Positions 19,973 through 32,878 of a stretch of 64,000 bases of DNA are shown here, piece by piece. The position numbers and the translations under genes were made by a program. The DNA comes from an uncultured delta proteobacterium (lineage in GTDB: Bacteria > Desulfobacterota > Binatia > Binatales > Binataceae): positions 64,001-128,000 of the forward strand of contig CAWJET010000001.1 of the NCBI GenBank assembly GCA_963842085.1, given 5' to 3'. Within the stretch, counting starts at the first letter, position 1. Every line of letters starts with the position of its first letter. The notes beneath the pieces are model-generated. The model saw nothing but the letters and a program-made list of their open reading frames with translations. It made no database searches and was not told the origin of the DNA.

Positions 19973-20299
19973 CTACGGGCTGCTCAAGTCCGGCAGCCCA
20001 GTGGAGCCGTCGTACGGAGCGGCGCCGACGCAAACGTAGGAGGGAACATAACCGAAGCTGAAGATGGTCAGCATGACCTGACGGCTGTGCTCCAGCATCT
20101 CGACGTTCGCGTGCGCGAGCTCATCCATGCGAGATTGGCATGCGTCGAGACCGTAGGCGGCAGCGATCACGATCTTCCGATTACCCGCGGGATCGTTCTG
20201 GACCCCCTCCCGGGTGCTGCATCCCATCAAACAGAAGAGCGCGAGAGACAGGGTTAGAACTCGCATCTCCGCTTTAGGTTGACACGCGTGTAACTGCAA
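19973..20299 (-). CDS. Hypothetical lipoprotein
   Basis: MRVLTLSLALFCLMGC lipobox. Confidence 0.6.
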   Translation of the reverse strand: MQLHACQPKAEMRVLTLSLALFCLMGCSTREGVQNDPAGNRKIVIAAAYGLDACQSRMDELAHANVEMLEHSRQVMLTIFSFGYVPSYVCVGAAPYDGSTGLPDLSSP

Positions 20300-20502: not shown

Positions 20503-20579
20503 TGGCGCGCCATGAGGGACTTGAACCCCCGACCTGATGATCCGTAGTCATCCGCTCTAATCCACTGAGCTAATGGCGC
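20503..20579 (-). tRNA. tRNA-Arg(ACG)
   Basis: Full cloverleaf GCGCCAT..GATGA CT ACG GA TCATC..GGTTCAAGTCC..ATGGCGC G CCA. Confidence 0.97.
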
Positions 20580-26506: not shown

Positions 26507-26541
26507 ATCTTAACAGGGGGTGCAGGGGTCACCCCCCCGGT
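26507..26541 (+). repeat. Multi-hairpin intergenic element, partial core
   Basis: ATCTTAACAGGGGGTGCAGGGGTCACCCCCCCGG. Confidence 0.6.
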
Positions 26542-26547
26542 TTCACA

Positions 26548-27873
26548 TTAGATTTTGCGTATTCGTTCCAATCCGCCCATATAAGGCCGCAATACCTCGG
26601 GAATCGTCACGCTGCCATCCTCGTTCTGGTAGTTTTCCAGCACCGCGATCATAGTCCGCGGCAGAGCCAGCCCTGATCCATTCAATGTATGAACGAGCTC
26701 GGGCTTGCCACCCTTGGTTTTGAAACGAATCTTCGCGCGACGCGCCTGGAAGTCCGTGCAATTGGAAACCGAGCTGACCTCGAGCCATTCGCCGCATCCC
26801 GGCGCCCACATTTCCAGGTCGTAAGTGGCCGCGCTCGCGAAACTCAGATCCGCGGTGCACAGGGCGACAACTCGGAATGGAATCTTCAGCCGCCGGCAGA
26901 TCTCCGCGGCGTTCTCCACCATCTTGTGAAACTCGTCGTCCGACGTCTCCGGACGCACCAGCTTCACCATCTCAACCTTGTCGAACTGATGCCCGCGCTT
27001 GATGCCGCGCACGTCGCGCCCGGCCGACATCTTCTCGCGCCGAAAGCACGGCGTGTACGCGGTCAGGTAGATCGGCAGAATTCTTTCGTCGAGCGTCTCG
27101 TCGCGATGCAGGCTGGTGAGCGGAACCTCGGCGGTCGGGATAAACCAGAAGTCATCCTCGTCGTCGTGGTACATCGTGTCCGCGTTCTTCGGCAGATGCC
27201 CCGTGCTGGTCGCCGTCTCGCGACTCACCATCAACGGCGGAATTATTTCGAGATAACCCTGCTCCCGCTTGACGTCGAGCATCCAGTTGATCAGGGCGCG
27301 CTGAAGCCTCGCGCCCGCGCCGCTCAGGACATAGAAACGCGTCCCCGACAGTTTCACTCCGCGATCGAAATCGATGATTCCGAGATTCTCGCCGAGTTCC
27401 CAATGCGGGAGCGGCTTGAACGCGGTGAACTCAACCGGCGTCCCCTCGGTCCTGATTACGCGATTGTCGGCCTCGCTCGTGCCGACCGGCACATCCGCCC
27501 GCGGGATGTTGGGCAGCTCCAGCATGCGCGAATGGACCTCGCGTTCTGCAAGAGAGAGTTGCGCGCCCAGGAGCAGTAACGGATTGCTGGCATCGACCGC
27601 TTCGCCGGGCGGGAGCTTGGTTAGCTTTTCCTCGTCCGCTTCCTCGGCGCGAATCTTGGCGATCTCAGCCGCGCGTTGGTCCGGCGGCAGCTTGCCGACT
27701 TCCCTAGCCCGCCGCTTGCGATCGGCGCGCAGTTGATCGACTTCGCCTTGAAGCCTTCGACGCTTCTGATCAGCCTCGAGGATTCGATCGACTTCGGCCG
27801 GCTCGACGCCTCGCTTGGCAAGTTCGCCCTTCACGAAATCCGGCCGTTCACGAATCAGCTTGATATCCAGCAT
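26548..27873 (-). CDS. serS: Serine--tRNA ligase
   Basis: MLDIKLIRE, PTAEVP, FRRE..GRDVRGIKRGHQF, HTLNGSGLA. Confidence 0.98.
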   Translation of the reverse strand: MLDIKLIRERPDFVKGELAKRGVEPAEVDRILEADQKRRRLQGEVDQLRADRKRRAREVGKLPPDQRAAEIAKIRAEEADEEKLTKLPPGEAVDASNPLLLLGAQLSLAEREVHSRMLELPNIPRADVPVGTSEADNRVIRTEGTPVEFTAFKPLPHWELGENLGIIDFDRGVKLSGTRFYVLSGAGARLQRALINWMLDVKREQGYLEIIPPLMVSRETATSTGHLPKNADTMYHDDEDDFWFIPTAEVPLTSLHRDETLDERILPIYLTAYTPCFRREKMSAGRDVRGIKRGHQFDKVEMVKLVRPETSDDEFHKMVENAAEICRRLKIPFRVVALCTADLSFASAATYDLEMWAPGCGEWLEVSSVSNCTDFQARRAKIRFKTKGGKPELVHTLNGSGLALPRTMIAVLENYQNEDGSVTIPEVLRPYMGGLERIRKI

Positions 27874-27889
27874 TCAGAATGCGTTCCTC
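27836..27889. repeat. 54-bp perfect direct repeat, copy A (functional serS start)
   Basis: AAATCCGGCCGTTCACGAATCAGCTTGATATCCAGCATTCAGAATGCGTTCCTC identical at 28366-28419. Confidence 0.97.
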
Positions 27890-27927
27890 GCTAGCCTCAT
27901 ATAAGGCGGAATTCGTGAGTCTTGAGG

Positions 27928-28350
27928 CTATCGCCTGTCCATTCCACTACGAGTGTTGGCTTGAAATTGGGTTTCGCTTTTAGACATCTCGTTGTCGAAC
28001 CAACTCCTCATCATCGGCATCACTTTCACTTTGAACTCCTCGGACGCCTCATCCGGATATTTCGTGCGCCGAACGGGATAAAAATACAATTCGCCTCCTC
28101 TTCCGTATTGCAGAAGCTTGCGAAATCTCGTGAGTTCGGACTCCGGATGCATCTTAAGCGAGGCAATTACTGGTCCAGCAAACTTCGGCCGAGGAGAGTA
28201 TCGAGCGTTCCATCTGCGCGTCAAAAACGATCTCTTGGGCCGTCCGAAGCCCACCCGATTAACGGCGGTCGAATCGAATGCGGTTCGAACGTCTCGCTCC
28301 GAGCAGGCAAACCGCTCACCTGACTGTGGTTTGATGGACTGTATGTGCAC
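27928..28350 (-). CDS. Hypothetical protein in inserted cassette, possibly frameshifted near 3' end
   Basis: 140-aa ORF with lower GC; alternative frame TLVVEWTGDSLKTHEFRLI* ends at 27897. Confidence 0.6.
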   Translation of the reverse strand: MHIQSIKPQSGERFACSERDVRTAFDSTAVNRVGFGRPKRSFLTRRWNARYSPRPKFAGPVIASLKMHPESELTRFRKLLQYGRGGELYFYPVRRTKYPDEASEEFKVKVMPMMRSWFDNEMSKSETQFQANTRSGMDRR

Positions 28351-28365
28351 AATTCAATCTCGTAA

Positions 28366-28419
28366 AAATCCGGCCGTTCACGAATCAGCTTGATATCCAG
28401 CATTCAGAATGCGTTCCTC
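28366..28419. repeat. 54-bp perfect direct repeat, copy B (yraN end plus serS stub)
   Basis: Identical to 27836-27889. Confidence 0.97.
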
Positions 28420-28814
28420 AACAGTTCGATTTCCAGTCTCTTGCCCGACGCGTCAACCGCCACGATATCGAAGCGCATCTCGATTTCATCCGCTCGATAG
28501 CGCCGCGCAAAAACCTCCGCCGCGCGCCGCATCCGGTTTTGCTTGCGCTCATCGACGGCCTCTTCCGGCGCACCCGCCGCGCGCGAGCGTCGCGTCTTCA
28601 CCTCGACGAAGACGAGAGTCTCGCCGTCGATCGCGACCAGATCTATTTCCGCTCCGGCAGCGCGAAAATTCCGCGCGACGATCCGGTAGCCAGCGCGCCG
28701 CAGATACTTTTCCGCAGCCTGTTCGCCACGCCGACCTAGCGGAAGCTGCGCTCGAAGCTCCGCCAGCCATGCGACGGCCCGGCCGATCGAATCACGCAAT
28801 GTTATCTTATCCAA
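28404..28814 (-). CDS. yraN: YraN/UPF0102 family protein
   Basis: GEQAAEKYL..GYRIVARNFR..EIDLVA..LVFVEVKTR..RFDIV. Confidence 0.93.
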   Translation of the reverse strand: MDKITLRDSIGRAVAWLAELRAQLPLGRRGEQAAEKYLRRAGYRIVARNFRAAGAEIDLVAIDGETLVFVEVKTRRSRAAGAPEEAVDERKQNRMRRAAEVFARRYRADEIEMRFDIVAVDASGKRLEIELLRNAF

Positions 28815-28896
28815 CCCGCCCCCATTCCCGCGAGGCTAGAAGGCCGCACCAGCCTCCGCAAGCTGCCCGGCCAGGCGAAAGCTCTTCTCACTAACC

Positions 28897-29022
28897 CCTT
28901 CTGACAGGGACGAAGTCCCGCATCTTTTCTTTCTTAGTACTGGGTGCAGGGGTCACCCCTGCCCAAGGAAGCGTGAAACCCATGGTGGGTTTCGCATTCA
29001 ATGAAGTGATTTGCCCTTCCCC
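28897..29022 (+). repeat. Multi-hairpin intergenic element, longest copy
   Basis: Hairpins GGGAC-GAA-GTCCC, GCAGGGG-TCA-CCCCTGC, GAAACCCA-TGG-TGGGTTTC; aligns to 20646-20700 and 59186-59277. Confidence 0.85.
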
Positions 29023-32322: not shown

Positions 32323-32646
32323 TCATCTGGCCGGGCGCGGGAACGATTCGGGCTTCCTGCCAAGCCGCTCGAAAAAAGCTTGAACGAATGCAGCGGCGCG
32401 GAGTTGGGGCAGTGTAACCCGCACAACACAGAAATCGGGGTATGTTCTGAGCGCGACCGTCGCCGCTTCTCCGAACAGCCGATCCCGCGTCAGTAGAACG
32501 GTAAACTTCGCCTGGGCCGCGGCGCTGACCAGACTGCCATTGCTGAGTGTGTTCCAGCCCCGAGCCACGGCCGAGTCGGCCTCAATGGCCAAGTCTTGGA
32601 GCAGCGCAACCAGCTGCACCGGCATGTTTGCATCAAGCAGCCACAT
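32323..32646 (-). CDS. DUF5615 PIN-like putative toxin, probable 3' frameshift
   Basis: MWLLDANMP...LLTRDRLF; coupled to DUF433 gene. Confidence 0.8.
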   Translation of the reverse strand: MWLLDANMPVQLVALLQDLAIEADSAVARGWNTLSNGSLVSAAAQAKFTVLLTRDRLFGEAATVALRTYPDFCVVRVTLPQLRAAAFVQAFFERLGRKPESFPRPAR

Positions 32647-32878
32647 GCTCGGAATCGAGCAGCTCCGAGGCAACTTTCATAATCTCCGGGATTGCCTCTT
32701 GCGGAAACGGGCCGTAGGTCTGCGCGATCTCCTCCTCGCTCATGCCCTCTGCCAGACAGGCAAGCACAAACGAGACCGACAGGCGCGTTCCTCGGACCGC
32801 GAGCTTGCCGCCCAGCAGGTCCGCGTCGCGAACGATCCAGTCGTACTTTTTGTAAGCCGCGGGTTTCCAATCACTCAT
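32633..32878 (-). CDS. DUF433 putative antitoxin
   Basis: LLGGKLAVRGTRLSV..LAEGMSEEEIAQTY. Confidence 0.88.
   Translation of the reverse strand: MSDWKPAAYKKYDWIVRDADLLGGKLAVRGTRLSVSFVLACLAEGMSEEEIAQTYGPFPQEAIPEIMKVASELLDSEHVAA

Follow-up and report, generated by a model that had tools for sequence, protein, structure and literature searches.

Gene insertion with long target duplication was reportedly first described in H. pylori by Nobusato et al. in 2000, and HpyII is said to be a case of deletion and reconstitution in the same species. Minimal mobile elements reportedly go back to Saunders and Snyder in 2002. Insertion with long target duplication has since been set out as a class by Furuta et al. 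2010, whose repeats run across translation starts or stops; its authors propose restriction-enzyme breaks as the cause and, in the part of the paper cited here, leave the mechanism open (PMC2853133). In E. coli, duplications arose in 56 of 60 clones from linear DNA that had homology on one side, and they measured 109-950 bp in 14 sequenced clones; the authors interpret them as the products of trimming, ligation and a single crossover (PMC3240628). The minimal mobile elements of Neisseria hold variable content between conserved genes and rely on homologous recombination with no integrase (PMC3787668). In T6SS/rhs arrays, the end of a donor gene displaces that of the host, which is left behind as an orphan 3' end (PMC5361080).

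The locus that we describe here lies between yraN and serS in an uncultured delta proteobacterium (source genome G000, 4.93 Mb in 2 contigs), within a window of 64,000 nucleotides, the whole stretch of DNA analyzed. A sequence-only reading had put it forward as an undescribed system. This claim is not supported, since the class is already published (PMC2853133): the insert is real, it is not a new element, and it works like an insertion with long target duplication, without being a restriction-modification member of the class. So far as the cited excerpt describes the class, the likenesses are an insert below 20 kb (476 bp here) with no mobility gene; a repeat above 30 bp (54 here) that is present in single copy at the empty site of relatives (37 of 43); a variable repeat length, here 0 to ~143 bp at one site; a repeat that runs across a translation start or stop, here the stop of yraN and the start of serS, so that the target is left intact; and an insertion into an operon (PMC2853133). 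Cargo in the published class includes restriction-modification genes, which were a screening criterion, whereas here there are none; in addition, ~20 cases occur here in one genome, and the repeat copies resemble donor and host alleles (PMC2853133). Long target duplication, so far tied to restriction-modification genes, is thus found without them at ~20 gene ends. A literature search that reached mainly open-access work returned no paper on this gene-end pattern as a genome-wide, non-restriction-modification process.

The remaining systems resemble the locus in part. With the E. coli products it shares variable duplications of a single homologous flank and the lack of an integrase; those, however, came from laboratory conjugation with 1 kb of homology and duplications of 109-950 bp, whereas the present events are natural, of 27-180 bp, and reconstructed (PMC3240628). 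The site has the variable content of a minimal mobile element, as yraN-serS may be empty or hold the passenger, hairpins or spacers of 30-43 bp. The Neisseria definition does not call for flanking repeats, while here the site is mostly empty and receives one gene family (PMC3787668). As in the T6SS/rhs arrays, a donor gene end appears to have displaced that of the host and left it as an orphan; those arrays concern toxins and immunity genes, in contrast to the housekeeping gene ends and unrelated cargo seen here (PMC5361080).

Anatomy of the insert between yraN and serS

Two identical 54-mers lie at 27836-27889 and 28366-28419, offset by 530 bp, and they are the only two copies in the whole of G000. 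Read on the minus strand, each comprises the last 16 nt of yraN, with the GAGGA motif and the stop, followed by the first 38 nt of serS, as the earlier reading had stated. Pfam identifies the two genes as UPF0102 (yraN) and seryl-tRNA synthetase (serS). The yraN family has been reported, in the excerpt cited, as the partner nuclease of ComM in natural transformation (PMC13663708). The features of the locus are as follows.

26548..27873, minus strand: serS, seryl-tRNA synthetase, intact, 441 aa, with its start within repeat copy A (open reading frame and Pfam)
27836..27889, minus strand: repeat copy A, made of the orphan last 16 nt of yraN, which give the GAGGA motif, and the working first 38 nt of serS
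27890..27896, minus strand: right junction, common to 6 other filled loci with small changes (locus comparison)
27897..28350, minus strand: passenger, a member of an unnamed family of ~135-153 aa, a pseudogene here (homologs and model)
28350-27928, minus strand: passenger open reading frame as it stands, 140 aa
27955..27957, minus strand: frameshift, with 2 nt fewer than in G004 and sequencing run X8 and the last two predicted strands lost
28351..28365, minus strand: left junction, 15 nt of passenger leader fused to nt 38 of serS (locus comparison)
28221..28403, minus strand: 60-codon open reading frame from the serS stub of copy B, overlapping the passenger out of frame
28366..28419, minus strand: repeat copy B, made of the working last 16 nt of yraN and the orphan first 38 nt of serS
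28404..28814, minus strand: yraN (UPF0102), intact (open reading frame and Pfam)

The interval between the repeats, 476 bp, has a GC content of 51% compared to 61% for G000. The lower GC that had been noted is therefore correct, but the single open reading frame that had been noted, of 140 aa, is that of a frameshifted gene. Likewise, the serS start in copy B had been described as a dead-end stub of 13 residues, and its frame is in fact open for 60 codons (28403-28221). In other filled loci the stub frame varies between 7 and 53 codons and its start is mutated in one (L041); we considered a conserved translational coupling through the stub and dropped it, since stub length and frame vary. The working serS retains its ribosome-binding motif and start, in support of the earlier reading. 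The TAG at 27893-27891 in the right junction is the passenger stop in loci L039 and L042, and it is likely the original stop of the passenger in G000, too, placed one base from the repeat. The left join of G000 is unique among the loci fetched, and run X8 has it as well.

The absence of integrase, transposase and terminal inverted repeats was borne out: no long inverted repeat bounds the 476-bp interval, the closest tyrosine recombinase is 49 kb off and the closest serine recombinase >400 kb off, from a total of 14 tyrosine and 9 serine recombinase matches in G000. An insertion sequence or MITE was rejected, as there is no terminal inverted repeat and the gene has one copy in G000. As a separate observation, a multi-copy REP-like motif occurs at window positions 26508-26535 and 28932-28959, the two copies bracketing the yraN-serS unit.

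The junction in relatives and in independent sequencing runs

Of 47 genus genomes, 43 have a readable yraN-serS junction. An empty site, which the sequence-only reading had predicted, is present in 37 of the 43, with yraN abutting serS without a gap in 36 and with 1 nt in one. The passenger occupies the junction in G000 and G004. Different passengers had also been anticipated and did not appear: this is the one gene family at yraN-serS among the 43 genomes, accompanied by a 248-bp insert in G055 (L074:1260-1545), with three REP-like hairpins and a 28-bp copy of the serS start, and by spacers of 30-43 bp in G020, G048 and G024. A REP-transposase route, suggested by the G055 hairpins and duplication and by one Y1 match in G000, was set aside because the cassette has no flanking hairpin. 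With a profile search, the passenger turned up in 3 of the 47 genomes, the third (G006) carrying it elsewhere and without repeats. Of 17 metagenome loci with the gene, yraN-serS accounts for 8, and the other 9 form a sister clade (~50% identity) located elsewhere; no flanking repeat was found at these nine, some of which are on short contigs.

Besides G000, 9 loci hold the passenger at yraN-serS. The repeat measures 27 bp in G004 and L038, 30-31 bp in L036, L037 and L040, 54 bp in G000, ~46 bp with small changes in L041 and L043, ~143 bp in L042 and 0 bp in L039. Its outer edge mostly ends at the GAGGA motif needed by serS and its inner edge is variable. Six different left junctions occur among the 10 filled loci, one of them, older and drifted, being common to L036, L037, L038/G004 and L040. 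Since the right junction is common to most filled loci, they descend from one early event. These 10 loci and six junctions form a natural series in which the route of insertion is testable.

A fixed minimal element, as originally proposed, is contradicted by repeat lengths of 0 to ~143 bp at this one site, and an att-type integrative element or satellite was rejected because neither core nor crossover point is fixed (six left junctions in 10 loci). We also regard as very improbable a dedicated minimal integrative circle that would use a 54-bp att core and either a recombinase supplied in trans or the passenger as a homing-type nuclease. The return of the same gene to one site with a nearly fixed outer boundary would suit such a circle, as would the 14 tyrosine and 9 serine recombinase matches in G000 and a passenger whose function is unassigned. 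Against it, the range of core lengths largely refutes a fixed core, 20 unrelated gene ends bear the same scar with no shared motif by eye, the sister clade sits elsewhere without repeats (in G006 and at the 9 metagenome loci), and G000 itself has a broken passenger.

Filled loci occur at scattered positions of the host tree (6 changes for 7 rows), and a single clade of filled hosts is rejected (p-AU 7e-140). This tree has 46 rows; L037, L039, L040 and G024 were left out as too short and G019 for its long branch. The coiled-coil arm of serS (window 27560-27760) holds an insertion that is highly variable across the genus and unusually divergent in L042.

Contigs from independent sequencing runs support the arrangement. 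In 4 of 4 soil runs, from 2 studies, contigs match the window at the frameshift and include the insert-to-repeat join on the serS side; the yraN-side join is found in 3 of the 4 (X1, X2 and X4), among the pieces listed. A peat run from a third study (X8) contains the cassette with the same joins and a full-length passenger frame. An assembly artifact of the long-read genome could draw on the fact that one of the four soil runs may be the window's own source. It is refuted, and we give it practically no credence, by the insert-to-repeat joins in contigs of three studies, by run X6, which has the 54-mer as a separate contig at ~2x the depth of the insert, and by the same arrangement at 9 other loci. 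Because contigs of the four soil runs share the frameshift, two further runs have an additional 4-nt deletion at 28102 and the peat run has the full-length frame, the arrangement is real and the gene is decaying in this population. The ratio of insert to flank contig depth is about half in X1 and X8 and about equal in X3 and X4, with contig depth not equivalent to copy number; filled, empty and circular forms all yield identical pieces as k-mer contigs. Contig depth is very high at window 28896-29000.

The age of the gene and the age of the repeat differ. Between filled loci, the passenger has a dS of 0.54 versus 0.63 for yraN, and its identity of 0.75-0.92 tracks that of yraN (0.78-0.94), with the exception of the near-identical G004/L038 pair. 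Because it tracks yraN, the gene has long travelled with this junction; it is old at the site (dS about 0.5), and only the repeat and junction of G000 look young. Perfect identity of the repeats, on which the proposal of a recent event had been based, is by itself weak proof, given that 25 of 30 empty sites of other species are only 1-2 bases off the 54-mer. One codon state present in both G000 copies occurs in 1 of these 30 empty sites.

It is conceivable, and in our view unlikely, that one old insertion with a long duplication was inherited vertically, lost often through its repeats, and trimmed lineage by lineage, with gene conversion preserving the identity of the G000 copies. It would explain why passenger divergence equals flank divergence, and it is in keeping with the shared right junction and the older, drifted left junction of four of the rows above (L036, L037, L038/G004 and L040). 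However, very many precise losses would be needed (37 of 43 sites are empty), and for a spare stub of 38 nt and such an age, the probability of remaining unaltered is only 2e-3 to 4e-6, at distances of 0.17-0.33 per lineage. Moreover, in L042, a metagenome contig of 2.2 kb whose serS arm is divergent, the serS stub and the working copy have 8 mismatches in 75 sites. For 7 of the 8, the state is one that also occurs in working alleles of other species, and the working copy itself lies closest to its host clade. As its changes are working-allele states, the stub derives from a working gene of another lineage, and conversion cannot yield such allele-type differences from its neighbor.

The X8 cassette also speaks against the old insertion, being far nearer to G000 than the X8 flanks are. 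Over 562 nt, 13 substitutions and one gap of 2 nt separate it from the G000 cassette (97.7% identity), as opposed to 26/231 and 22/261 differences in the flank contigs, which are 89-92% alike (Fisher p 6e-7). This contrast points to a recent transfer between species, as far as the sequences go, with cassette and flanks linked through common contig ends and no single contig spanning both.

Gene-end duplications and the route of insertion

The earlier suggestion that other genes of the genome might show the same arrangement proved correct. We scanned 6997 gene ends, from gene calls made with our own script, for a same-strand copy 150-8000 bp away and outside any long gene. The scan returned 25 rows: 19 3'-ends copied downstream, 3 5'-ends copied upstream, serS included, and 3 copies on the wrong side; in an internal-segment control, 0 of 2328 segments had such a copy. 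After removal of 4 rows (two that stem from a single paralog pair, and the other two on the wrong side), 21 pairs of orphan gene-end copies at 20 genes were kept in G000, serS among them. These include glmS and an Rrf2 gene, together with the following cassettes.

C1:2773877-2774886, G000: murI gene-end cassette
C2:660937-662027, G000: clpA gene-end cassette
C1:2476226-2477533, G000: other gene-end cassette
C1:2980201-2984714, G000: other gene-end cassette
C1:2383418-2384763, G000: other gene-end cassette

The cassettes of G000 other than that at serS (about 20, L146-L163, with those just listed among them) include at least 4 toxin-antitoxin pairs and two 5'-end cases like serS. Their cargo is unrelated, comprising HicAB, BrnT/CopG, TumE/HVO_A0114 and Gp49/HTH pairs, enzymes and lipoproteins. 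Among 37 chosen cargo reading frames, none belongs to an integrase or transposase family, and no junction motif common to the 20 gene ends was seen by eye. Orphan copies recur in relatives within 1.5 kb of the clpA end (3 of 30 loci, one of them that of G000, varying in length and content) and of the murI end (2 of 30 loci). At one clpA 3' end (L101, genome G041), the same HicB-like gene that G000 has there is present without hicA, with a 126-bp repeat and 442-bp spacing. In the window, two small genes sit directly behind gatB (32323-32878), for which the scan gave no gene-end repeat. They resemble a toxin-antitoxin pair of the DUF433/PIN type.

Third codon positions account for 57 of the 91 mismatches within the 21 pairs, and 54 are silent against 37 non-silent; the 13 ungapped pairs have 30 silent and 9 non-silent mismatches. 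Against a null of 40% silent changes, which is our own assumption for the decay of a copied target, the silent excess has a p of 3e-6 for ungapped pairs and 1.5e-4 for all pairs. Owing to this bias, a repeat is better understood as two working alleles, one from the donor and one from the host, than as a copied target. The series of filled yraN-serS loci also offers an easy means of recognizing gene flow between species among uncultured soil bacteria.

For the insert at yraN-serS, the reading that we favor, with somewhat better than even confidence, is that a foreign gene was placed between two 54-bp junction copies by host recombination of circularized donor DNA and not by an integrase, and the homology-driven capture that had been suggested is to this extent supported. 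DNA from a related lineage, in which the gene already stood beside the junction, would enter the cell, likely by natural transformation. The donor DNA would then be trimmed and its ends joined, likely by Ku/LigD or microhomology, to give a non-replicating circle that contains the gene together with junction sequence of random length. This circle would integrate through one crossover at the empty junction of the chromosome, such that the junction length on the circle becomes a direct repeat of mixed donor and host origin, with donor-derived inner halves. Survivors would be those events that keep the GAGGA motif and start of serS, and later deletions could trim the spare copies to the motif. Recombination between the repeats would give back the exact empty site, and filled alleles may also move by ordinary two-flank replacement. 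As other outcomes would sever serS from its ribosome-binding motif, the carried serS start is best read as survival bias.

G000 encodes ComEC, DprA, a ComM-family ATPase, and Ku with an adjacent 902-aa ATP-dependent ligase. Competence genes are present in at least 10 of 14 control genomes, which makes this equipment permissive and not diagnostic. A length of 54 bp is short for an efficient RecA crossover. In addition, the match between passenger and yraN in identity and dS counts against the circle route, as it resembles what long vertical descent would give, and so does the right junction common to most filled loci.

A one-sided capture without a circle could explain one inherited and one new junction, as well as donor-type gene ends, equally well. 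Single-stranded DNA would pair at one flank and its free end would join behind the anchor, so that the stretch between is duplicated, either through homology-facilitated illegitimate recombination or through a template switch at the transformation D-loop. A route of this kind has been proposed for T6SS arrays with orphan 3' regions, in the excerpt cited (PMC5361080). Its expected product, however, is a deletion, and in the cited part of the E. coli work it was the minority outcome (4 of 60; PMC3240628). We judge one-sided capture to be distinctly unlikely.

Returning to circularized donor DNA, the process might be a general one, in which DNA of sister species is end-joined into circles that enter at the ends of housekeeping genes with the donor end swapped in, single genes such as the passenger cycling in and out of one site across species, with a new repeat length for each entry. 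We propose this integrase-free capture tentatively, as a possibility that we rate below even.

The passenger family

The passenger, of which G000 has one copy, is 2 nt short near 27956 relative to G004, and the last ~18 residues of the family lie in another frame ending at 27897. Since the frameshift removes the last two strands of the structure model, the G000 copy is likely inactive. The gene is intact (151-153 aa) in 8 of 8 metagenome loci at yraN-serS and is under purifying selection, with a median dN/dS of 0.21 at a dS of 0.54. Its relatives comprise 22 close homologs and 124 clusters at 50% identity, the farthest being on plasmids of Priestia (30-37% identity); the family was not found in a draw of 300 other genomes of the phylum. 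No common partner gene was seen near distant members (2 of 10 Priestia plasmid matches, and the metagenome loci). A promoter-like match lies within the passenger.

Searches against Pfam and NCBIfam matched 0 of 90 family members and PHROGs 0 of 6, the sequences of solved structures gave no match to the passenger, and PADLOC returned single weak matches for 2 of 90 (E about 1e-3). The best ESM Atlas matches, at 0.90-0.92, were unnamed clusters with recognition slightly below threshold and were left unused. A structure model from 14 sequences was poor (pLDDT 48), whereas one from 90 sequences reached a pLDDT of 89.9 and a pTM of 0.86 and predicts a mixed sheet against one long helix. With the 90-sequence model, Foldseek found nothing at E 0.001 or better in the PDB and viral libraries, and the best VIA match was an HtpX domain (Z 5.2, rmsd 3.3, 84 aligned). 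The structure search that had been recommended thus delivered a confident model but not a clear fold match, and the absence of a match does not show the predicted fold to be new. Our best guess for the passenger is an accessory protein that the cell can do without and that is carried along at the site without driving insertion. It constitutes a separate, modest lead: a widespread unnamed family with purifying selection, a confident model and no structural match.

Two further observations were made outside the cassette. A small lipoprotein-like open reading frame (window 19973-20299) lies near tRNA-Arg (20503-20579) and has a homolog in G006 (L031:2561-3331), ~3 kb from the passenger homolog and beside an IS1595-like reading frame. 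G000 also contains a long CRISPR-like array (G000:C1:2051500-2057300) with ~36-bp repeats at ~72-bp spacing.
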